Notes under the pieces: model-generated
Seen by the model: the letters and a program-made list of their open reading frames with translations, nothing else
What the model was told of the DNA's origin: nothing
Database searches by the model: none
Shown: positions 3,520 through 30,231 of the stretch, in pieces
How positions within the stretch are numbered: the stretch's first letter is position 1
How the letters are laid out: every line of letters starts with the position of its first letter
Position numbers and translations under genes: made by a program
DNA from: an uncultured Clostridia bacterium
GTDB lineage: Bacteria; Bacillota; Clostridia; Oscillospirales; Acutalibacteraceae
Direction: 5' to 3'
Assembly: GCA_905235625.1 (NCBI GenBank)
Contig: CAJOLX010000001.1
Location: 38,587-102,586 of the forward strand
Length of the DNA stretch: 64,000 bases

Positions 3520-3681
3520 ATATGTTTGTTTTGTTTGCGCGAAAACTCACTCACTCCGCTGCTCCTCCTCTCCCCAAAAAGTCTGCGACTTTTCGGGGAC
3601 CCCGTATTTGTTGGGTCAGGGGTTCGACATTTCTACGAGAGCATAAATAAAAATCCACCCGCTTTGCGGATGGATTTTTAT

Positions 3682-3706
3682 TGGCGCGCTTGAAGGGACT
3701 CGAACC
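3682..3706 (-). pseudogene. tRNA-Arg 3'-end fragment (25 nt identical to 4161-4185, including CCA)
   Basis: tggcgcgcttgaagggactcgaacc is identical to the 3' end of the intact tRNA-Arg. Sequence beyond it cannot form a T-stem. It is preceded by its own terminator-like hairpin (3652-3679), mirroring the real gene. Confidence 0.8.
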
Positions 3707-3877
3707 TCGTCGTCGCAAGCTCCGTATCGCTCGTTTCCGCGCCTATCAAGAGTTTGTTTGCGCGAAAACTCACTCGCTCCGCTGCTCCTCCTCTCCCCAA
3801 AAAGTCTGCGACTTTTCGGGGACCCCGTAATTGTTTGGGTCAGGGGTTCGATTGCGCTGTTAATGTGTAAAAAAGAA

Positions 3878-3898
3878 GCGCTTGAAGGGACTCGAACC
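3878..3898 (-). pseudogene. tRNA-Arg 3'-end fragment (21 nt, lacks the CCA-proximal 4 nt)
   Basis: gcgcttgaagggactcgaacc is identical to 4165-4185; the flank is the same as for the 3682 copy. Confidence 0.75.
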
Positions 3899-3940
3899 TC
3901 GTCGTCGCAAGCTTCGTATCGCTCGTTTTCGGTAAAGAAA

Positions 3941-4120
3941 AAGTGATATATCTCGCTTTCGCTCGATGTTATATGTTTGCCCTGCGGCAAACGCGATATT
4001 TTTCGCTGACGCGAAAAGCGATATTATATTCGCCGTAAACTGCGCGCAGCGCAATATCACTCGCATAGCGAATATAACTGAGCAAAGCTCAATATAACTC
4101 GCCGAAGGCGAATATAACTG
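3941..4120 (-). repeat. array of short GC hairpins separated by a conserved AT-rich word (ATATAAC / GATATT)
   Basis: tttgcc-ctgc-ggcaaa, tttcgc-tgac-gcgaaa, tgcgc-gca-gcgca, tcgc-ata-gcga, tgagc-aaa-gctca and tcgcc-gaa-ggcga, each flanked by (a)atataac/gatatt; the last three units have a 21-22 nt period. Confidence 0.7.
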
Positions 4121-4160: not shown

Positions 4161-4237
<77 letters not shown>

Positions 4238-4244
4238 ATGTTTA

Positions 4245-4319
4245 TGGAGCGGGTGATGGGAATCGAACCCACACAGCCAGCTTGGAAGGCTGGAATTCTA
4301 ACCATTGAACTACACCCGC
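4245..4319 (-). tRNA. tRNA-Gly (anticodon UCC), CCA encoded
   Basis: Reverse complement GCGGGTGTAGTTCAATGGTTAGAATTCCAGCCTTCCAAGCTGGCTGTGTGGGTTCGATTCCCATCACCCGCTCCA; anticodon loop CTTCCAA. Confidence 0.93.
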
Positions 4320-4336
4320 ACTTTTGAATGCACTGT

Positions 4337-4365
4337 ATTTTAACACAGGCGTTTTAAAAAGTCAA
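4337..4365 (-). promoter_or_regulatory. sigma-70-type promoter of the tRNA operon
   Basis: Minus strand reads TTGACT, 17 nt, TAAAAT, about 18 nt upstream of the tRNA-Gly 5' end. Confidence 0.6.
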
Positions 4366-4456
4366 TCTTTTTACTTTTCTTTTTTTATTTTATATCTTTA
4401 ATTTTGTCACTCTTGCCGATTATGCTGCCCAAAAGTGAAAAAATAGATAAAAAAAC

Positions 4457-6342: not shown

Positions 6343-7445
6343 GCAAAAAGAATAAAGAGGCTGATTCCGCCGCGAAAATCGAGCGCGAAATCACCGCCGT
6401 GCCCGACAGCGAAGCGTGGACTTACCACGTGGACGGCCTTAAAGCTCCCGTAATCGGCGTGCCCGTTAAAAACGCCAAAATCAAAAAGGTTACAGTCGTT
6501 ATCGTTTTGCTCGTCGCCATAAGCCTGTCAATGCTCTTTTCCATAAGGGCCATACACAGCGACATTTACAATTACGAAGAGCTTGAAAACGGCTGGGAGT
6601 TTGTAAAATTCAGCAACCCCGGCACCGTTACGGAGCTGAGCATTGATTACGCTTTCGGCGAGAAAGACAAGCCGATAACCGAGGTTCACGAATACGCTCT
6701 CAACTGCGACGACAAAATAGTAACGATAAACATCGGCAAGGACGTTGAGAAAATTGACGGCAAGTCGTTTTACAGCGTGTGGAACCTTCAAAATATCTTC
6801 GTTGATGAAGAAAACGAATATTACCGCGACCTTGACGGCGTGCTTTATAACAAAGACTTAACCGAGGTCATCTGCTATCCGATAGACCACGACGCTTATC
6901 TCAGAAGCAAAGCGGGCTACGAGGAAGAGCTTTGGCCCGATAACGATAAATATGACGAGGCTTACGAGCAGGCGGTAAGGACCTACAAGCTGCCCGAAAC
7001 AGTAACAAAAGTGGGCGACCTTGCGTTTAACTACGCAAACCTTGTCACGGTTTACCTGCCCGAAGGCTTAAAGAGCATAGGCACTCTCTCGTTTTTTAAA
7101 GCTACGAGCCTTGAAAACGTAATCTCTTACAAGGGCGAAGAAACTTACGTTTCGCTGCCCGAAGGGCTTGAAACTATCGGCTCCGACGCTTTCAGCTACA
7201 ATCAGGCAATGGAATATATGTTCATTCCGTCAAGCGTTAAGGAAATAGGCCACCATGCTTTCTGGGACACGGTCTATAAAAAGAGCGGCGAGCTCAAAGG
7301 CATTTCCGTTATGAACGTTGCCGTTTCCGAAGAAGAATTCAATTCCTCCGTTAAAGCCGGCGACCACTGGATTCCCAATTACGACTATAATCTCTTCAAG
7401 AAAAACATCGAAATAAATTATTCGTGCGAAAGAGAAGCAGGATAA
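6339..7445 (+). CDS. membrane-anchored leucine-rich-repeat (BspA/LRR_5-type) surface protein
   Basis: GTG start overlaps the upstream stop (GTGA); TM helix VTVVIVLLVAISLSMLFSI; repeated ..IP.SV..IG..AF.. units typical of BspA-like LRRs. Confidence 0.65.
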   Translation: MSKKNKEADSAAKIEREITAVPDSEAWTYHVDGLKAPVIGVPVKNAKIKKVTVVIVLLVAISLSMLFSIRAIHSDIYNYEELENGWEFVKFSNPGTVTELSIDYAFGEKDKPITEVHEYALNCDDKIVTINIGKDVEKIDGKSFYSVWNLQNIFVDEENEYYRDLDGVLYNKDLTEVICYPIDHDAYLRSKAGYEEELWPDNDKYDEAYEQAVRTYKLPETVTKVGDLAFNYANLVTVYLPEGLKSIGTLSFFKATSLENVISYKGEETYVSLPEGLETIGSDAFSYNQAMEYMFIPSSVKEIGHHAFWDTVYKKSGELKGISVMNVAVSEEEFNSSVKAGDHWIPNYDYNLFKKNIEINYSCEREAG

Positions 7446-7458
7446 AACACTTAAAAAC

Positions 7459-7496
7459 GCAGGGCGCGGGCATAAAAACTTGCGCCCTGCGCTTTT
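7459..7496 (+). terminator. rho-independent terminator
   Basis: gcagggcgc / gcgccctgc stem followed by gctttt. Confidence 0.65.
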
Positions 7497-7711
7497 AGCG
7501 AAGAGAGAAAGGAGAAGAGTCTTCGACGAGAACAATTTTTATATAAATATTCGGCGATAGCCCCTTACAAAATCGGTTCAGCACCCATAAGGGCTTTCGT
7601 ATTAAGATGAAGACGGCGTTTTCTTTGCCCGAAGACAGTATCGAGATACGGCGAGGGCAAAAAAACGTCGAAAAACGAAAATATGAACATGGAATTGCAA
7701 AATATGTAAAA

Positions 7712-7751
7712 GAAAAAAAGAAGAGCGCAGATTTCAAAATCCACGCTCTTC
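7712..7751 (-). terminator. rho-independent terminator for the 7788-9251 gene
   Basis: gaagagcg / cgctcttc stem with a T-run on the minus strand. Confidence 0.6.
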
Positions 7752-7787
7752 TATATTTATCCATATCTTTTTCGTTTTGTTCTTCGC

Positions 7788-9251
7788 TTAAGACGGAAGT
7801 CCTGTTTCGAGCAGTTCTTCTTTTTGTTCGAGAGCCTCGTGCCTTCGCTTCAGCTCAGCTTCTATCATAAGCTTGGTATCTTTATCGTCCTTCACAAACG
7901 AGATTATTATCAGATACAGCGCCTGACCGATAACGGGGCCGAGCATGAATATCGGCCACACCCATTTGTTGTAAAGCTCGCCCTGCATATAATTCTTTTT
8001 GGAGGGGTCGTATTTGAGTGCGTTTAATATAATTCCGCTGAAGAAGAGGGTCACGGCGGAAGCAATTTTCGTGATGAAATTCTGCACGGAGAACGATATT
8101 CCTTCCGTCCTCTGACCTGTCTTGTATTCCACCTCATCGATTGAGTCGCTTGTAAGCGAGCGGTGAGCAATATCCATCATATTTGTCGGTATGTAAACTA
8201 TCGCCATGAGCGCCATAACGGCATACATCTGACCCATCGTGTTAAAGCCGATGAAGAATGAGACCGTGCGCAGCACGATATTGAGCACCTGAGCGAGCAC
8301 GAGAATTCTCTTCATGCCGCCGAGCTTTTCAGCCGCTTTTGTGGCAAAGAGCATTGCCGCCGCGCTGACCGCTCCGGTGATTATGCCGTAAACGACCTGC
8401 ATCGTGCCGCCGTCAAACGTTGCGAAGCCGAGGTTGTAGCTTTCGCGAGCTTCAAAGAAATATGCCCAGGGCAAAAGCGCCTGAGTCGCGTCTTTGCAAA
8501 ATCTTGCGAGTGAAATGAGAAGCAGTGTGCGGTTGTGCCTTAAAACGAATATTGCCTGCCAAAGGCTTTCTTTTGATTTAGGCACGTCAACGGCTTCCTT
8601 CATCCTGCCGGCGGACATTGAGATGAGCTCTCCGCCGAGGCCGAGTATCAAGCCGAAAAGAGCAAAAATCGCAACGTCGCTCATGCCGAGCGTTCCGGAG
8701 CAGAAGGATCTGTAAATCTGAAAACCGCCTGCGATCGTGGAGCCCGCTCCGGCGCCGATCGAAACCCACTGAGACACTCTGCCGCGTTCCGTGGAATGCG
8801 GCGAGGACACGGCGACCATGCCCCAAAGGGCGGTGTCCTGGAACGAATAGAAAAGGTCCCACAAAAGATATTCGGCAAAGATTATCACAACGGCTGCCAT
8901 GCCGGATGCTATGGGCAAAAACATCATGGCGCCGAGTATGCCGATAATCGGGGGAGTATAAACGAGAATGGGCCTCAGCTTTTCGCCGTTTTTAAATCTG
9001 TGCTTGTCAATCAAAGCGCCGACAAGCAGGTCGTTTACCGAATCCCACGCTCTTGATATGCTGGTAATCGTGCCCACGAGCACCGAATTTATGCCGAGAA
9101 TGCTCGTCATGTAGTAAAAGAGCCATCCGGAAATCATGCCGTAGGACATATTCTGCCCCGCAAGACCTACCGAATAAGAAAACAGCCTGCCCGTAGGAAC
9201 ATACCGTTTCGGCTCTTCGCCCGTTTTGACAGCGAGATCGCCGTCTGCCAT
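7788..9251 (-). CDS. GPH-family glycoside/cation symporter
   Basis: 487 aa; ..ISRAWDSVNDLLVGALIDKHRFKNGEKLRP.. GPH signature; RBS GGAGGG. Confidence 0.8.
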   Translation of the reverse strand: MADGDLAVKTGEEPKRYVPTGRLFSYSVGLAGQNMSYGMISGWLFYYMTSILGINSVLVGTITSISRAWDSVNDLLVGALIDKHRFKNGEKLRPILVYTPPIIGILGAMMFLPIASGMAAVVIIFAEYLLWDLFYSFQDTALWGMVAVSSPHSTERGRVSQWVSIGAGAGSTIAGGFQIYRSFCSGTLGMSDVAIFALFGLILGLGGELISMSAGRMKEAVDVPKSKESLWQAIFVLRHNRTLLLISLARFCKDATQALLPWAYFFEARESYNLGFATFDGGTMQVVYGIITGAVSAAAMLFATKAAEKLGGMKRILVLAQVLNIVLRTVSFFIGFNTMGQMYAVMALMAIVYIPTNMMDIAHRSLTSDSIDEVEYKTGQRTEGISFSVQNFITKIASAVTLFFSGIILNALKYDPSKKNYMQGELYNKWVWPIFMLGPVIGQALYLIIISFVKDDKDTKLMIEAELKRRHEALEQKEELLETGLPS

Positions 9252-9272
9252 AATTATCCCTCCGATTTCATT

Positions 9273-10736
9273 TTATTTTTCTTTTTCCTCGTTATTCAGC
9301 TCATTGCTGAGATTTGTTTGCCTAACGTATTCATAAACCGGCTCAAGCCTCTTTTTGGTGAGCGGGTATGCAAACTGATACAAAACGAAAATAAGAGTGT
9401 AGGTAACCGCGGGAATTGCGGTGCACACCTTGAGTATGCCCTCGCTCACTCCGGTTACAAAGCCTGCGTTTGCCATTGCGTCTGTGTAGCCGACAGCGGA
9501 GAGGAGCTTGAGTCCGCCGTAATCCGCGGCAGTCTGACCGAGCTTGCGGCAGAAGGTGTAAACGGCGTAAATCGCGCTCTCGCTCTTTATGTGAGTCGTA
9601 TATTCCTGATAGTCAATAACGTCCGCAACCACAGCCCAGTTTGTTATTGAAACGAACGAATAGCCAAAGCCGATAACAAAGAGAAGGGCAATGTAAATAA
9701 AGCTCTGGTCGGGCGAGGGTTTTATTAAGAAGGTGGCAACGGCGGCGGCTGCCGAGAAGAACGAGCCGAAACCGCTGAGCTCCTTTTTGCCGAATTTTTT
9801 AACGAGCTTCGGCACGAAGGGAATCATAAGCGCCATGGGCAGATATTGAGCTATCGTGCCCACGACCGACAGATTTGTGTTGCAGAAATAGTTTTTGTAG
9901 AGGTACTGATTAAGCGAAGCGAACTGAAGCTGACCGCTTATGAGTATGCCCGTAACGGCGAGCACTCTGAACGGCTTGCTTTTCAGCATGCCGAGGTAAG
10001 TGTCTTTCATGCTAACCTTCGGCGACGGGTCGGACGGCACTCTCTCTTTGGTTGTTTTGTAGCACGAAAGATAGAATATGACCGCCAGAGCCGCCATCGC
10101 AGCGGCGAAAAAGAACATCGCGGAGCCGTTTGCTTCATTATGGGTGAGTCCGTTTCCGTCGTCAACCTTCGTATATATAAGGAAAGGAGCAACAAGCAGG
10201 GGAGCGGCGCCGCCTATTCCTCCGCCGATCGTTCTGAACGTGGAAAGCAGCGTTCTGCCGTCCGGGTCGTCGGTTATGACCGAGGCGAGCGAGCCGAAGG
10301 GAACGTTCATGCCCGTGTAAAGCATGCCGAACGCTATGTAAGTGACGTAAGCGAAAGCAAGCATAACGCCCGTGCTTTGAGTAAACGCTCCTACGTTAAA
10401 GAAGCAGAGCAGCTCCGAAACGGCGAGCGGAATTGCGACCCACTTCACGTAAGGTCTGAATTTGCCGCCTGCGGAGGGCTTTCTTTTTGCCACTATCGCG
10501 CCCCACATCGGGTCGTTTACGGCGTCCCAAAGCCTTGTGAAAAGGAAAAGGTTTGCCACTTTGCCCGCGTTGATTTTAAGCACGTCGGTATAAAATACCT
10601 TGAGAAATGAAGAAACGTAAGTGAGCACAAAGAGGTTGCCGGCGTCGCCGAGCATGTAGCCTATTCCTTCCTTAATGCCTATTTTGTTTGGATTTGCCGA
10701 TTCGGGAAGCGTTCTTGCTTCTTTTTCATTTGACAC
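9273..10736 (-). CDS. GPH-family glycoside/cation symporter (MelB/YicJ-like)
   Basis: 487 aa; ..FTRLWDAVNDPMWGAIVAKRKPSAGGKFRPY.. GPH signature; GTG start 9 nt after AGGAG. Confidence 0.8.
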   Translation of the reverse strand: MSNEKEARTLPESANPNKIGIKEGIGYMLGDAGNLFVLTYVSSFLKVFYTDVLKINAGKVANLFLFTRLWDAVNDPMWGAIVAKRKPSAGGKFRPYVKWVAIPLAVSELLCFFNVGAFTQSTGVMLAFAYVTYIAFGMLYTGMNVPFGSLASVITDDPDGRTLLSTFRTIGGGIGGAAPLLVAPFLIYTKVDDGNGLTHNEANGSAMFFFAAAMAALAVIFYLSCYKTTKERVPSDPSPKVSMKDTYLGMLKSKPFRVLAVTGILISGQLQFASLNQYLYKNYFCNTNLSVVGTIAQYLPMALMIPFVPKLVKKFGKKELSGFGSFFSAAAAVATFLIKPSPDQSFIYIALLFVIGFGYSFVSITNWAVVADVIDYQEYTTHIKSESAIYAVYTFCRKLGQTAADYGGLKLLSAVGYTDAMANAGFVTGVSEGILKVCTAIPAVTYTLIFVLYQFAYPLTKKRLEPVYEYVRQTNLSNELNNEEKEK

Positions 10737-18017: not shown

Positions 18018-19931
18018 TCAATTATGTATCGTTCTTTGTGAAATACCTTCTATGGAAGTTATAGCCCAGTCGGTACCCTTTGATTCGATTATCGAGCCGC
18101 AATATTCGCACCTGCCTGCGGTGTTTATTTCGAGCGGTGCGCCGCAGTTCGGGCAAACCTCGGTGTGAAGGCCGCTGTCCGCTGTTTTAACGCCTCTCGG
18201 CCTTACGAGAGTCCATCTGTATTCCATCATCTTGATGTCTTTGGGATTTCCTCTTACAACCTCATCCGTTTTGTCGTCTATAACGTAATCTCTTATCGAG
18301 GCGGAAATGAGGACTTCTATAACGTCGTTTTCTCCGTTTACGTACCAGCCCGACGGAATAACGGAATTTACGTTAATATCCGTAACGATATTCGTCTGAC
18401 CGTCCGAGCGAAGGTGAGAGAGCTGGCGGTCGATCTGAGCGTAAAACGTGTCGGTCATATATCCTCTCAGAGGAGTGAGGTCTTTGTTTTGCCAGCCGTT
18501 TTGAAGCTCAACGTACATCTTCGCTATTCTTTCGGTGAATTCGTAAACGCTGAAGGTGTCGTCAACGCTCTGATATTCCGAAACGGGCACGAGATTTTGC
18601 TTTTGAGTTTTGGTAACCTGCACCGGTCTCGCAGCTGCCGACGGCCTGTCTTTCTTTATAAGAACCTTTCTGACAATGAGCAAAATGACGTCGAATATAA
18701 CTATGAGCGCGAGTATTCCCATCGCGATGCTGCCGTCTTCATTTTCAATGTCGGCATCCGTTAAAAGCAGCACCGCGTTAACCGCAGCTCCGGCAGGCGA
18801 ATAATACAGCGCTTTTCCGAGATAAGGCTCATCCGTCGGGTAGTCTTCGTAGCTGTATCTCTTCGGCTCCTCGGTCGTTACGTAATCGTCATCGTTACCG
18901 CTGTCGTAGCCGCCGTAGTCATATCCGCCGGAGTCGTAGCCGCCGCCGTAATCATATCCGCCGCCGTAGTCATAATCTCCGCCGTAATCGCCGAAATCCG
19001 CTTTTGAAATTATGCCGAGAGAGTTTACCGAAACAGCCAGAGCAAAGATAACGGCAAATGCTCTCAGGGCGCTCTTATTAAGCTTTTTCTTTTTAACGAG
19101 AATGACGATTGCAGTCGCCGCCGCCAAAACTATGCCGAGAAATATGCAGGCATTAAAAACGGAGTCAGGGTAGCCCATGAGCATATCGTAAAAATCGTTT
19201 ACGGTATTTTCTCCCTGCAAAACGTAAGCGTCTTCCGACTTTTCCGCTTTGCAGAAGGTCATATTTTCCTGCTCGCCGATGAACGTGTATTTCGCTCCGC
19301 TTTCGGGGTTTACCGCTTTGTAGGTTATTCTTACGTCGCCTATAGCGGGGTTTGCGGGGTCATCCGCAAAATACAGCCTTCCTTCATAAAGACGGGCGCC
19401 GATTGAGTCCGCCTGTTCCTTTGCGGCATTTATAATTTCGCTTTCGGATTCGCCGAATTTCGCAACGGTCAAAAGGCCGCTTTCGCCGATTTTCAGATTT
19501 CCGCCGTCCAAAACGGCGTCGTTAAAGAAGTAAGCGTTTTGATACTCTTTTGTAAACTCGGGGTTGGTGTATTCTTTTTCGCCGCCGATGTTCATTACCT
19601 GACTTGATCTGAATTCTTTATATACGGAGTAGCCGTCGGTAGTGTACTGATACACTTCAACTTCTCTTTTGAGCGCCATTGCGTTTGTCGAAATTCCCGT
19701 GAGCGGGTCGGTAACGGTGCCGAGCGCTTTCGGCGTGCCCACGGCAAAAACGGTTTTTCCGTCATTTTCGGCGCTCGTATTGCCGCCGATTATTTCGGTT
19801 ACTTCGGGCAGCTCGAAATTATCCGGATTGCCGCTTACCTTCGCGTTAAGCGCAACCAAAAAGAAAAACAGCGAGATTGAACAAAGTATTATGACCGATA
19901 CGGAAGATTTTTTGAGCAGCTTTTTCATCAT
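18018..19931 (-). CDS. membrane protein fusing a TMEM43/DUF1625-like N-terminal region, a Gly/Tyr/Asp repeat linker and a C-terminal Tim44-like domain with zinc ribbon
   Basis: 637 aa; EVEVYQY and GDVRITY motifs reminiscent of TMEM43 family; GDYGGDYDYGGGYDYGGGYDSGGYDYGGYDSG; Tim44-like ..FTERIAKMYVELQNGWQNKDLTPLRGYMTD..; CPNCG..CEYCG. Confidence 0.55.
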   Translation of the reverse strand: MMKKLLKKSSVSVIILCSISLFFFLVALNAKVSGNPDNFELPEVTEIIGGNTSAENDGKTVFAVGTPKALGTVTDPLTGISTNAMALKREVEVYQYTTDGYSVYKEFRSSQVMNIGGEKEYTNPEFTKEYQNAYFFNDAVLDGGNLKIGESGLLTVAKFGESESEIINAAKEQADSIGARLYEGRLYFADDPANPAIGDVRITYKAVNPESGAKYTFIGEQENMTFCKAEKSEDAYVLQGENTVNDFYDMLMGYPDSVFNACIFLGIVLAAATAIVILVKKKKLNKSALRAFAVIFALAVSVNSLGIISKADFGDYGGDYDYGGGYDYGGGYDSGGYDYGGYDSGNDDDYVTTEEPKRYSYEDYPTDEPYLGKALYYSPAGAAVNAVLLLTDADIENEDGSIAMGILALIVIFDVILLIVRKVLIKKDRPSAAARPVQVTKTQKQNLVPVSEYQSVDDTFSVYEFTERIAKMYVELQNGWQNKDLTPLRGYMTDTFYAQIDRQLSHLRSDGQTNIVTDINVNSVIPSGWYVNGENDVIEVLISASIRDYVIDDKTDEVVRGNPKDIKMMEYRWTLVRPRGVKTADSGLHTEVCPNCGAPLEINTAGRCEYCGSIIESKGTDWAITSIEGISQRTIHN

Positions 19932-28863: not shown

Positions 28864-29367
28864 TCATTTAACACATTTGTTGCAGGGTGTAAGCCCCAAG
28901 CTGAGAGCTTCATCAAGAGTGGCGGGATAATATGTTCCGTTTCCGCAATTTGGATCGTAATGGTAACGCTTTCCGGTTTCTGTGATATAAACTGTCATGC
29001 CCAAATTCTGCCCGCTTTGAGCGTAACCTGAATTGTTGCGAACGGGAGCGGTCGTTGTTCTTGTCGTCGCTGAAGTCGGTCTTGTAGTGGTAGTTGCAGG
29101 TTTAGTCGTAGTAGTTGTAGGTTTAGTCGTAGTGGTTGTGGCTTTTTCGGTAGTGGTTTCCGTTGTAACAGCGGAAGACTCGGTTGTTACGTATTTGTCT
29201 TCGGCTGAAGTTTCTTCTTCCGATTCGTCAAATTCGGGCATCGCTCTTTCAATTTCTGCCGTTTCAGATTCAATTTGGCTTTCAGCAGGGTCGTCGTTTG
29301 ACAGCGCAACAGCGCCGATAATCAAAACAGAGAGTACGGCGACCATGCCGATAACGACTTTTTTCAT
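28864..29367 (-). CDS. membrane-anchored/secreted Thr-rich protein with C-terminal His/Cys (YH..C...C..C) small domain
   Basis: Start moved to MKKVVIGMVAVLSVLIIGAVAL (ATG 29367, 8 nt after GGAGG); TTTTKPTTTTTKPATTTTRP linker; C-terminal ..TGKRYHYDPNCGNGTYYPATLDEALSLGLTPCNKC. Confidence 0.6.
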   Translation of the reverse strand: MKKVVIGMVAVLSVLIIGAVALSNDDPAESQIESETAEIERAMPEFDESEEETSAEDKYVTTESSAVTTETTTEKATTTTTKPTTTTTKPATTTTRPTSATTRTTTAPVRNNSGYAQSGQNLGMTVYITETGKRYHYDPNCGNGTYYPATLDEALSLGLTPCNKCVK

Positions 29368-29380
29368 GTGTTTTTCCTCC

Positions 29381-29552
29381 AAAATAAAAAGTGCGCAGCC
29401 AAGGGCTACGCACGAAAAACGCATAGCTCTGATTGCTGCCACACAACTTTTGAGTCTACATACACTGTAAGTATATCAAAATGAGCTTGCGTTTTTACCT
29501 GGATAAAAACACAAACTTACAATGCAGTAAGACTCCTGTTCAGTTATGTGGC
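29381..29552 (-). ncRNA. candidate structured 5' leader (riboswitch-like attenuator), class not recognised
   Basis: 115-nt imperfect rod (29438-29552). The three mismatches I checked in its helices are G-U pairs only in the minus-sense RNA. It is followed by an intrinsic terminator (29391-29413 plus U-run 29381-29390) abutting the RBS, with competing antiterminator and anti-antiterminator pairings. Confidence 0.4.
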
Positions 29553-29558
29553 AAAATC

Positions 29559-29587
29559 AGTATAGCATAATGAGATTTGATAATCAA
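29559..29587 (-). promoter_or_regulatory. sigma-70-type promoter driving the leader and the 28864 gene
   Basis: Minus strand reads TTGATT, 17 nt, TATACT; the predicted TSS coincides with the first helix of the leader. Confidence 0.5.
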
Positions 29588-29615
29588 TCTTTTTTGTTTC
29601 AAAACCGAAATATTT

Positions 29616-29663
29616 TAAAAAATTAAATGCAAGGCGGGAATTTTTAATTCCGCACCCTGCATT
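29616..29663 (-). terminator. rho-independent terminator of the RNase gene
   Basis: aatgcagggtgcggaat / attcccgccttgcatt stem followed by a T-run on the minus strand. Confidence 0.7.
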
Positions 29664-29670
29664 GTTTTTA

Positions 29671-30231
29671 TCAGTATAATTGAGTGAACGTTTCGTAATG
29701 GTCGCCCGTATAATAAATCGAGCCGTCATCTGAATAAACTATTCTTTTCGCTCCGCGCGATGATTTGCCGAGAGTGTCAATGTCGCATTCATAATAGGTT
29801 TTTCCTTCGGGCAGCTGCCCCTCGTAGTTGCCGAAACGGCTGCCTCCTATTGCGCCGCCGGGGAAGTACGGATCAACGCTTCCGTTTTGCCAGCCGAGCT
29901 TTTGCGCCTCTTTTTTGGTTATGTAGTTTGAGGGCAGGCGGCCGTAAGTGTGAATGTAAAGCGCAACCTCGTCTTTGCTGTAATACTTGCCGTTTTCGTC
30001 TATCGCCGCAGGCTCCGTTTTTTCGGCGGATGAAGCCTCGGCTGATTTCGTTTCACTTTGAGAGCTTGGCGGCGGTTCGGTTTCGTCCTGCGTTATCTTC
30101 TCATCGGTTTGCGAAATCGTTTCATTGCCGCCGTCGTTTATATCAGTCACGTTTCCGCCGTGAAGCACCACACCGGCGGCGATTGCAAGCGCCAAAAGCA
30201 GAGAAATCAGTATTATGCGTAATTTTTTCAT
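29671..30231 (-). CDS. secreted barnase-family (N1/T1 microbial) guanyl-specific ribonuclease
   Basis: Start at MKKLRIILISLLLALAIAAG (ATG 30231 after GGAGGG). The C-terminal domain aligns with barnase: YITKKEAQKLGW.., YECDID (Glu73 equivalent), SSRGAKRIVYS (Arg83/Arg87), TGDHYETF (His102). Confidence 0.85.
   Translation of the reverse strand: MKKLRIILISLLLALAIAAGVVLHGGNVTDINDGGNETISQTDEKITQDETEPPPSSQSETKSAEASSAEKTEPAAIDENGKYYSKDEVALYIHTYGRLPSNYITKKEAQKLGWQNGSVDPYFPGGAIGGSRFGNYEGQLPEGKTYYECDIDTLGKSSRGAKRIVYSDDGSIYYTGDHYETFTQLY

Follow-up and report, generated by a model that had tools for sequence, protein, structure and literature searches.

A portable promoter-leader-terminator cassette, probably a transcription attenuator, in gut and rumen Clostridia and their phages

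Introduction

The three-helix attenuators of Firmicutes are among the closest known counterparts of the element reported here, a leader on the minus strand (29587-29381) of a 64,000-nt stretch of DNA from an uncultured Clostridia bacterium (contig CAJOLX010000001.1; the whole stretch of 64 kb is hereafter called the window), located directly upstream of a gene for a 167-aa secreted Thr-rich protein. S-box (SAM-I) and other OFF riboswitches feature the same three strand-sharing helices, i.e., anti-antiterminator, antiterminator and terminator, are likewise promoter-proximal and end in a terminator abutting the ribosome-binding site (RBS). Unlike these riboswitches, the leader has neither a multi-helix aptamer junction nor an Rfam match, and its relatives precede mutually unrelated genes; its anti-antiterminator is a long-range pairing of 14-15 bp between an apical bulge and a linker and not, as in the S-box, the closing helix of the aptamer. 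An anti-antiterminator, as found in the S-box and PyrR systems, characteristically marks a leader whose default is read-through and which an effector shuts off.

A second parallel is offered by the pyr attenuators of Bacillus subtilis, where an anti-antiterminator stabilised by a protein would give the same logic, and a conserved apical hairpin is found in the leader as well. The PyrR binding loop is, however, missing, and the leader was rejected as a PyrR site: the apical loop AUCCAGGUAA is a partial look-alike only, with AUCCAGG only partly similar, and RF00515 gave no match. Countertranscript attenuation, e.g., in pT181 repC, pIP501/pAMbeta1 repR or pCF10 Anti-Q, resembles the leader in that a long RNA-RNA pairing removes the antiterminator strand and thereby favours the terminator; in the leader, however, the "antisense" strand is located in the same transcript rather than on the opposite DNA strand, and its action in trans is hypothetical. 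T-box leaders (RF00230) of Firmicutes also combine a long 5' stem domain with subsequent competing antiterminator and terminator hairpins, but the specifier loop, the T-box sequence, the UGGN antiterminator bulge and a match to RF00230 are all absent here, and the genes behind the leader are not related to amino acids.

More distant likenesses exist to the lambda nut and rrn boxA sites, which are promoter-proximal RNA elements ahead of a terminator, occur in phages and contain a single-stranded GCUCU-U-rich motif. The leader matches boxA only in part, a boxB or an N-like partner was not identified and, unlike nut sites, it contains its own terminator. Transcribed palindromes of the Correia and miniature inverted-repeat transposable element (MITE) type share the imperfect palindrome, the terminal inverted repeats and the occurrence at many loci, and 5' stem-loop stabilisers of mRNAs (aprE, ermC) share a stem that starts at +1. 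In contrast to both, copies of the leader are strictly oriented, strand-specific and joined to covarying parts that are not palindromic.

A preliminary description of the locus, made from the letters of the window, had proposed an unclassified, strand-specific leader with terminator/antiterminator logic. Here, we report a computational analysis of this proposal. The leader family is new and its proposed mechanism is of a known kind, namely that of the three-helix attenuators of Firmicutes; the leader itself is probably a portable and self-contained promoter-leader-terminator unit attenuating transcription of the gene directly behind it, and it is unclassified in Rfam 15.

Results

In the direction of transcription, the leader consists of a promoter, a long imperfect hairpin (the rod, with helices P1 to P4), a linker, a switch strand (seg3) and an intrinsic terminator formed by the strands seg4 and seg5. 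The decisive feature is that seg3 is complementary to two covarying partners: seg2, comprising the 3' strand of P4 and the start of the adjoining bulge, and seg4, which also pairs with seg5 as the terminator. Across the family described below, all four helix sets covary.

Relatives of the leader emerged first from rumen-metagenome contigs, which over the leader region kept only 29382-29453 (P1 3' strand, linker, switch strand and terminator). This part is present in many different contigs with flanks diverging on either side, and in several of them the U-tract runs directly into GGAGG and ATG. A run of 43 nt (29408-29450) that includes seg3 is even identical in unrelated rumen contigs with different flanks on both sides, which suggests that, beyond constraint alone, 3' modules may recently have been exchanged between loci or genomes. 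Exact 20-21-mers and a first gapped pattern yielded only two genomes and zero viral contigs, with a 21-mer from the conserved core matching two Clostridia metagenome-assembled genomes; blastn gave matches in two faecal "Bacteriophage sp." records. All four sources carry a complete element: behind promoter and P1, the rod varies, its apical hairpin and bulge are the same, and linker, terminator and RBS follow. A gapped pattern derived from the shared blocks then retrieved 18 IMG/VR viral contigs and at least 120 metagenome contigs. Removal of duplicates among the matches listed left 118 distinct elements (median length 167 nt). The search pattern fixed GTAAAA, TTGTGTSGYAGCAA and TTTTT in this sample, and the conserved AGCAA of the linker is partly due to this. 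Three copies that came to light independently of the pattern diverge more strongly in P1 and linker and retain the architecture. The family consensus reads GCgACACAAnunnAUA ... anGnnugnnUUUUUanUUuGGUAAAAAuGCAngCUCunuUUUcgcAU ... aaanUUGUGUcGCAGCAAucGGAGcUnUGCgUUUUUCGGUGCGugGCUUCGGcUGCGCACUUUUUU.

The leader of the window matched this family by nhmmer with E = 6e-31. A covariance model (R1), for which 22 members similar in length were used and the window was left out, recovered it at 29381-29552 on the minus strand over model positions 1-162 (116.7 bits, E 1.3e-24) and matched 101 elements in 100 sources, almost all at full length, resulting in the alignment A5. The family promoter TTGaca-17-TGnTAnAAT is held in a fixed register, with the TG present in 90% of members and the -10 element ending ~6 nt before the first G of P1. 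Besides the full-length match to R1, the window leader shows the in-register promoter, the switch strand with its dual complementarity and the junction of U-tract and RBS. A second copy within the 64 kb was found neither by repeat search nor by nhmmer or the covariance model. The window thus contains just one copy of this large family of leader RNAs, which occurs in Clostridia of gut and rumen and in their phages. Elsewhere, copies can lie close together: contig L090 harbours two within 1.5 kb (740-896 and 2263-2423) and contig L101 two nearly back to back (1507-1683 and 1739-1902), each followed by its own open reading frame (ORF).

In A5, the modelled helices (rod and terminator) are paired in 94% of cases and show changes on both sides in 24 of 34 pairs. 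P1 features a GC/CG swap in 32-33 of 93 members, with closing pairs occurring as AU, UA, CG and GC, and P2 varies in length and sequence. Both-side changes affect all seven pairs of P3 and all nine of the terminator, where 99.5% of cells are paired. The seg2:seg3 and antiterminator helices were not part of the model that produced A5, and their covariation carries more weight. Among the ~100 members aligned, seg2:seg3 comprises 14 pairs that are 92% paired, eight of them with both-side changes (e.g., CG/UG/UA at one position), while slid registers reach only 38-54%; the antiterminator, in which seg3 pairs with seg4 plus loop, comprises 10 pairs (88% paired), again eight with both-side changes. 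An anchored count independent of any alignment gave 88% pairing compared to 73% for permuted partners (maximum of 500 permutations 77.6%). The three-state attenuator put forward in the preliminary description, including the pairing of GCGUAGC with GCUAUGC and that of linker and bulge, is hence supported by compensatory changes in ~100 relatives for each of its three pairings.

Consistent results came from duplex energies, with cognate strands averaging -16.3 vs. -11.9 kcal/mol for non-cognate ones in seg2:seg3 (median rank 10/107), -10.7 vs. -7.5 kcal/mol in seg1:seg2 (seg1 being the 5' strand of P4) and -12.9 vs. -10.4 kcal/mol in seg3:seg4. Moreover, 113 of the 118 elements have a rod that is more stable in sense than in antisense, and G-U pairs number 460 in sense and 117 in antisense. 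RNAalifold on a plain MAFFT alignment recovered P1 and the terminator alone, a shortfall caused by the variable rod lengths and resolved by the covariance-model alignment. Covariation and strand asymmetry together indicate that selection acts on the element as RNA, in its present orientation, and maintains more than one conformation.

The window sequence itself folds accordingly. For the minus-strand RNA (29560-29365), the minimum free energy (MFE) is -83 kcal/mol, compared to -45.9 +/- 4.0 kcal/mol for shuffled sequences (z = -9.4; none of 200 shuffles was as stable), whereas the plus strand reaches only -60.5 kcal/mol. The argument that mismatches of the palindrome turn into G-U pairs in the minus sense was therefore upheld, and it extends to the family as described above. 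The promoter, rod, terminator and GGAGG junction were all located where the preliminary description had placed them, by sequence check as well as promoter and terminator scans; the promoter scan returned the TTGATT-17-TATACT element and added a TG upstream of the -10, and the U-tract does end at the GGAGG of the gene at 28864-29367. P1, P2, P3 and the apical hairpin are all part of the MFE structure. The asymmetric bulge is present too, but measures 14 nt rather than 18, since P4 had been taken to end earlier.

Both competing pairings exist in the window. GCUAUGC (29427-29421) pairs with GCGUAGC (29411-29405) in the antiterminator, a plain hairpin with a 9-nt loop, and the linker-bulge pairing of GAGCUAUGC with GCAAGCUC (29490-29483) extends to 14 bp with one bulged base (AAAAACGCAAGCUC with GAGCUAUGCGUUUUU). 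In isolation, seg2:seg3 amounts to -17.9 kcal/mol and is more stable than P4 (-10.4 kcal/mol), while seg3:seg4 and the terminator amount to -12.3 and -18.3 kcal/mol, respectively. In MFE snapshots of the growing chain, the antiterminator is the MFE structure at 150-156 nt and is overtaken by the terminator, by ~3.5 kcal/mol, only at 162 nt, when the 3' strand is out.

Two further candidates were rejected and a third was not supported. The terminator 3' strand can form a stable helix (-11.6 kcal/mol) with the P1 3' strand plus AGC, yet cognate and non-cognate strands perform equally (cognate rank 41/100, positive controls 0 and 3), and this pairing was dropped. Short ORFs inside the rod, which might have encoded a leader peptide, were rejected as they vary in frame and start codon among members. 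A K-turn at the P1/P2 internal loop was not supported, with no consistent tandem G-A signature in the members inspected.

Searches against known RNAs left the leader without a class, as anticipated in the preliminary description. With Rfam 15 at gathering score, the whole window gave two tRNAs and a Gut-1 RNA elsewhere and nothing at the leader; at E <= 10, 29300-29720 gave nothing meaningful, the best hits being miRNA models with 14-17 bits against thresholds of 50-106. Signatures of cyclic di-GMP (c-di-GMP) riboswitches are likewise absent from the leader. A literature search did not find a paper naming the family, which may be among the thousands of unnamed candidates in PMC8040213.

The features of the locus are compiled in Table 1. 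They occupy a gap between two minus-strand genes, which runs from the terminator of a ribonuclease gene through promoter, long imperfect hairpin, linker and terminator to GGAGG and ATG. Within the apical loop region, the family shows a G conserved to 95% at the end of the loop, followed by GUAAAA.

Table 1. Coordinates of the leader and its downstream gene in the window (start site, regulatory roles and helices as predicted; helices from the MFE fold)
Feature	Coordinates	Strand	Remarks
Promoter, sigma-70-type	29587-29559	minus	-35 TTGATT at 29587-29582, 17-nt spacer; promoter scan
Extended -10 TGcTATACT	29564-29559 (-10 hexamer)	minus	ends 6 nt ahead of the G of P1
Predicted transcription start	~29552	minus	first base of P1
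Rod, ~115 nt	29552-29438	minus	helices P1-P4
P1	29552-29542 / 29448-29438	minus	5' strand GCCACAUAACU, opens the predicted transcript
5'-side internal loop GAACAG	29541-29536	minus	family consensus nnAUAn
P2	29535-29527 / 29459-29452	minus	
P3	29526-29515 / 29472-29461	minus	
P4	29514-29503 / 29498-29487	minus	5' strand is seg1, UUGUGUUUUUAU
P4 apical loop CCAG	29502-29499	minus	
seg2, GUAAAAACGCAAGCUC	29498-29483	minus	P4 3' strand and bulge start; anti-antiterminator strand, complementary to seg3
3' bulge, 14 nt	29486-29473	minus	
Rest of 3' bulge, AUUUUGAUAU	29482-29473	minus	family consensus nUUUUcgcAU
3' strands of P3/P2/P1	29472-29438	minus	
Linker, AGCAAUCA	29437-29430	minus	P1 to seg3
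seg3 (switch strand), GAGCUAUGCGUUUUU	29429-29415	minus	alternative partners seg2 or seg4 (the latter via GCUAUGC)
Intrinsic terminator, 10 bp, G+C-rich	29413-29391	minus	loop CUU; terminator scan
seg4, GUGCGUAGCC	29413-29404	minus	terminator 5' strand
seg5, GGCUGCGCAC	29400-29391	minus	terminator 3' strand
U-tract, UUUUUAUUUU	29390-29381	minus	abuts GGAGG
RBS GGAGG	29380-29376	minus	
Start codon ATG	29367	minus	8 nt on from the RBS
Regulated gene	28864-29380 (with RBS); coding sequence 28864-29367	minus	167-aa secreted Thr-rich protein

Throughout the family, the leader is closely linked to a downstream gene. Of the 118 elements, 108 are succeeded by a same-strand ORF with an RBS, the start codon lying a median of 19 nt past the U-tract and within 40 nt in 89 of the 108 cases. 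In the window, there is no space for a second promoter between U-tract and RBS. This close spacing, which leaves no room for another promoter, implies that control in cis is built in. The encoded proteins (the cargo) share no pathway: about half of them carry a signal peptide, lipobox or membrane helix, the majority of 100 proteins have no Pfam domain, and the domains found include BspA-type LRR (8), SLH (4), XRE HTH (4), zinc ribbons (4), AMP-binding enzymes (3) and PASTA (3). The link to the secreted Thr-rich protein made in the preliminary description therefore holds for the window, where the leader lies directly upstream of this gene, but not for the family with its very varied cargo, and it is incidental.

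The 167-aa protein starts with a signal or anchor helix, continues with a linker that is acidic and rich in Thr, and ends in a Cys/His module of ~45 aa (TVYITETGKRYHYDPNCGNG...LTPCNKC). Except for the same strain, no true orthologues are on record; L001 and L002 represent the same strain and have identical leaders. Similarity to homologues is confined to the C-terminal module, and the gene of the only full-length relative (P0010) has unrelated AT-rich surroundings and no leader. The module itself (window 28864-29010, minus strand; TVYxTxTGKRYHYxxxCGNGTY...A...GLTPCxKC) ends many secreted proteins of Clostridia (P0002-P0034), where it is placed behind Thr- or Pro-rich linkers, and it also terminates an MBL-fold protein in L083. 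It had no match in Pfam, NCBIfam or PDB and is possibly a small metal-binding domain.

A subset of the copies resides in phage DNA, with an integrase upstream in seven loci and phage exonuclease, endonuclease and MazG genes nearby. In the viral contig IMGVR_UViG_3300045988_111473 (L021), the copy (4252-4417) lies at a boundary inside a co-directional gene array. This array continues into nuclease genes and, ~2.3 kb past the leader, a 930-aa gene (6758-9550, plus strand) matching phrog_4291, which is annotated as "RNA-dependent RNA polymerase" (1320 bits). We assume that its product is probably a YonO-like single-subunit RNA polymerase. Neighbour families recurring across the loci comprise integrase, phage nucleases, MazG and an ABC protein.

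In the window, the upstream neighbour (29671-30231, minus strand) encodes a secreted ribonuclease of the barnase/RNase Sa family (PF00545, E 8e-22) with its own promoter and terminator, and no barstar-like ORF was found next to it. Its homologues were rejected as a route to orthologous leaders, being too numerous and non-syntenic. The pyr genes next door are convergent and lie outside the control of the leader.

Discussion

We propose that the rod folds first during transcription, which would hide most of seg2 behind seg1. With seg3 free as seg4 emerges, the local antiterminator hairpin could form and allow read-through into the gene of the secreted protein; with seg3 captured by seg2, seg4 would be released for the terminator, giving rise to a stable RNA of ~170 nt. 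Capture could nucleate on the single-stranded GCUC toehold of the bulge and displace seg1, and the choice between termination and read-through would be kinetic. Its anti-antiterminator places the leader among elements with read-through as the default, which an effector would turn off. Being located at the 5' end, P1 probably also shields the read-through mRNA from 5' exonucleolytic decay.

Several points weigh against this reading. In the presence of intact P1-P3, a linker of ~7 nt is unable to reach the bulge, a nested alternative for seg2:seg3 costs ~14 kcal/mol, and linker length is uncorrelated with rod length across the family (rho ~0), so that a geometric coupling was dropped. Formation of seg2:seg3 consequently requires opening of P1, a helper or intermolecular pairing. 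No dedicated regulator was found nearby, since, after clustering of the 1784 ORFs around the copies, every family was confined to at most 10 of the 118 loci. The sample was drawn with the search pattern, and the conservation of its fixed blocks is hence overstated. Finally, the on-by-default state is inferred from the architecture alone, and transcription start, terminated RNA and read-through are all predicted.

Our best guess for the effector of such an attenuator is a macromolecule at work throughout the cell, either a protein or an RNA, which would target the conserved apical domain. We rank it ahead of a metabolite, of Nus factors binding a boxA-like bulge and of a purely kinetic or static device, in this order. 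A macromolecule is preferred over a metabolite because of the two-way rod, the few conserved unpaired bases, the competing helix of 14-15 bp and the cargo without a common pathway.

A more far-reaching option is a novel type of genome-wide control, in which each copy carries its own "countertranscript" and released leaders force termination on nascent siblings by pairing with their switch strand. Intermolecular pairing would follow in this case from the inability of seg2:seg3 to form inside the intact rod and from the independence of linker and rod length. Stable terminated leaders from chromosomal and prophage copies would then all contribute to one RNA-titrated regulon, uniting dozens of accessory, surface and phage genes that are otherwise unrelated. 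We regard this scenario, or alternatively that of an orphan riboswitch for a global signal, as speculative and rather unlikely.

A metabolite or ion riboswitch of a new class, in which a ligand bound at the apical domain (P3/P4, U-rich bulge and 5' internal loop) or at a seg2:seg3 pseudoknot would set the availability of seg3, also appears rather improbable, although it survives better than the explanations that follow. The logic of the expression platform is that of the S-box and other OFF riboswitches, and the apical domain (~55 nt) is conserved in sequence past the needs of pairing. In addition, riboswitches for c-di-GMP and similar signalling molecules are also found ahead of surface-protein and phage genes. 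However, the two-way rod has no multi-helix junction, few unpaired positions are conserved, the competing helix is far longer than pseudoknots stabilised by ligands, and neither a shared pathway of the cargo nor a match to Rfam classes points to a ligand.

The location of the leader in phage contigs, at an operon boundary inside a co-directional gene array, could be taken as a hint of Nus-dependent antitermination, as nut sites and terminators are situated at such boundaries in lambdoid phages. The bulge UGCUCUnUUU would then represent a boxA-like NusB/S10 site, and binding of NusB/S10 would hold seg2 from seg3 and/or render the polymerase resistant to the terminator. The bulge consensus GCUCUnUUUU shares GCUCU..U with the boxA consensus of gamma-proteobacteria, GYUCUUUAANA (PMC5725501), and a phage subgroup reads CUCUCUUUAC. 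Compared to this consensus, which may differ from the boxA of the host, the window (GCUCAUUUUGA) and the family (GCUCUnUUUUCG) agree in 5-7 of 11 positions, a resemblance short enough to be due to chance. Moreover, the would-be boxA lacks conservation at its position 6 and has UU instead of AA at positions 8-9, and GCUCU is already accounted for by the covarying pairing with seg3. We give this explanation little credence.

Equally low in our estimation is a static cassette without any signal, in which the rod only stabilises the mRNA and a leaky terminator insulates the gene and sets a low expression level. This idea would fit P1, which starts at the predicted +1 like the stems of established 5' stabilisers, as well as the strong and conserved terminator and the failure to find an effector, but two extra mutually exclusive helices kept by compensatory changes would be left unexplained.

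The element could also be read as a stand-alone gene for a small RNA of ~170 nt, terminated and acting in trans, e.g., on sibling leaders by seg2:seg3, with read-through being secondary. Its own promoter and terminator would suit such a role, as would the difficulty of forming seg2:seg3 within a single rod-shaped molecule and the possible presence of several copies with compatible seg2 and seg3 per genome or contig. It is nonetheless improbable in view of the RBS and start codon directly behind the U-tract in most copies, which leave no space for a further promoter, and no other seg2- or seg3-like site, as a possible partner in trans, was found beyond chance in the 64-kb window.

MITEs and repetitive extragenic palindromic (REP) repeats occur in both orientations and in many copies per genome, have symmetric mismatches and no fixed relation to genes. 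That the leader is such a repeat at the DNA level (MITE, REP or Correia), or an invertible segment with the inverted repeat of P1 as its borders, without function as RNA, is the least credible explanation and next to negligible: it would fit the imperfect palindrome, the terminal inverted repeats of 11 bp, the many unrelated loci and the frequent breaks of assemblies at the element, but is contradicted by the asymmetry of fold stability and G-U pairs between the strands, by the orientation of the copies with a promoter upstream and a gene downstream, by the covarying long-range helices outside the palindrome and by the presence of only one copy in the 64 kb. The preliminary description had named a sporadic MITE-like insertion at unrelated loci as an outcome that would speak against a leader. 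Copies at unrelated loci do exist, but they are oriented, linked to promoter and gene, and covarying, which is why we regard the element as a portable regulatory cassette rather than a MITE.

With its own promoter, its presence in well over a hundred contigs and three mutually exclusive helices each maintained by compensatory changes, the leader is absent from Rfam 15 and from the literature searched. Its association with BspA-type LRR and SLH surface proteins, lipoproteins, XRE regulators, AMP-ligases and early phage genes indicates a common signal or factor, which would govern the expression of accessory and surface genes in uncultured gut and rumen Clostridia, a major and poorly tractable part of the microbiome. 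For genome annotation, the family accounts for many intergenic regions of the "orphan promoter plus hairpin plus terminator" type. The compact (~170 nt) and portable leader might also serve as a regulatory part for Clostridia.

Additional features of the window

Apart from the leader, the Gut-1 RNA (RF01706, 53.7 bits) at 4049-4120 on the minus strand adjoins two tRNA genes (4164-4319). The tRNA region further contains two pairs of direct repeats, one of 86 nt with 97% identity (3530-3615 and 3753-3838) and one of 54 nt with 96% identity (3686-3739 and 3878-3931), spaced by 192-223 nt; the repeats at 3530-3931 look like a duplicated tRNA-plus-spacer unit. Periodic repeats of 15/18 nt (GCCGCCGTAGTCATATCC-like) at 18894-18993 probably encode a Gly/Tyr/Asp-rich repeat on the minus strand.

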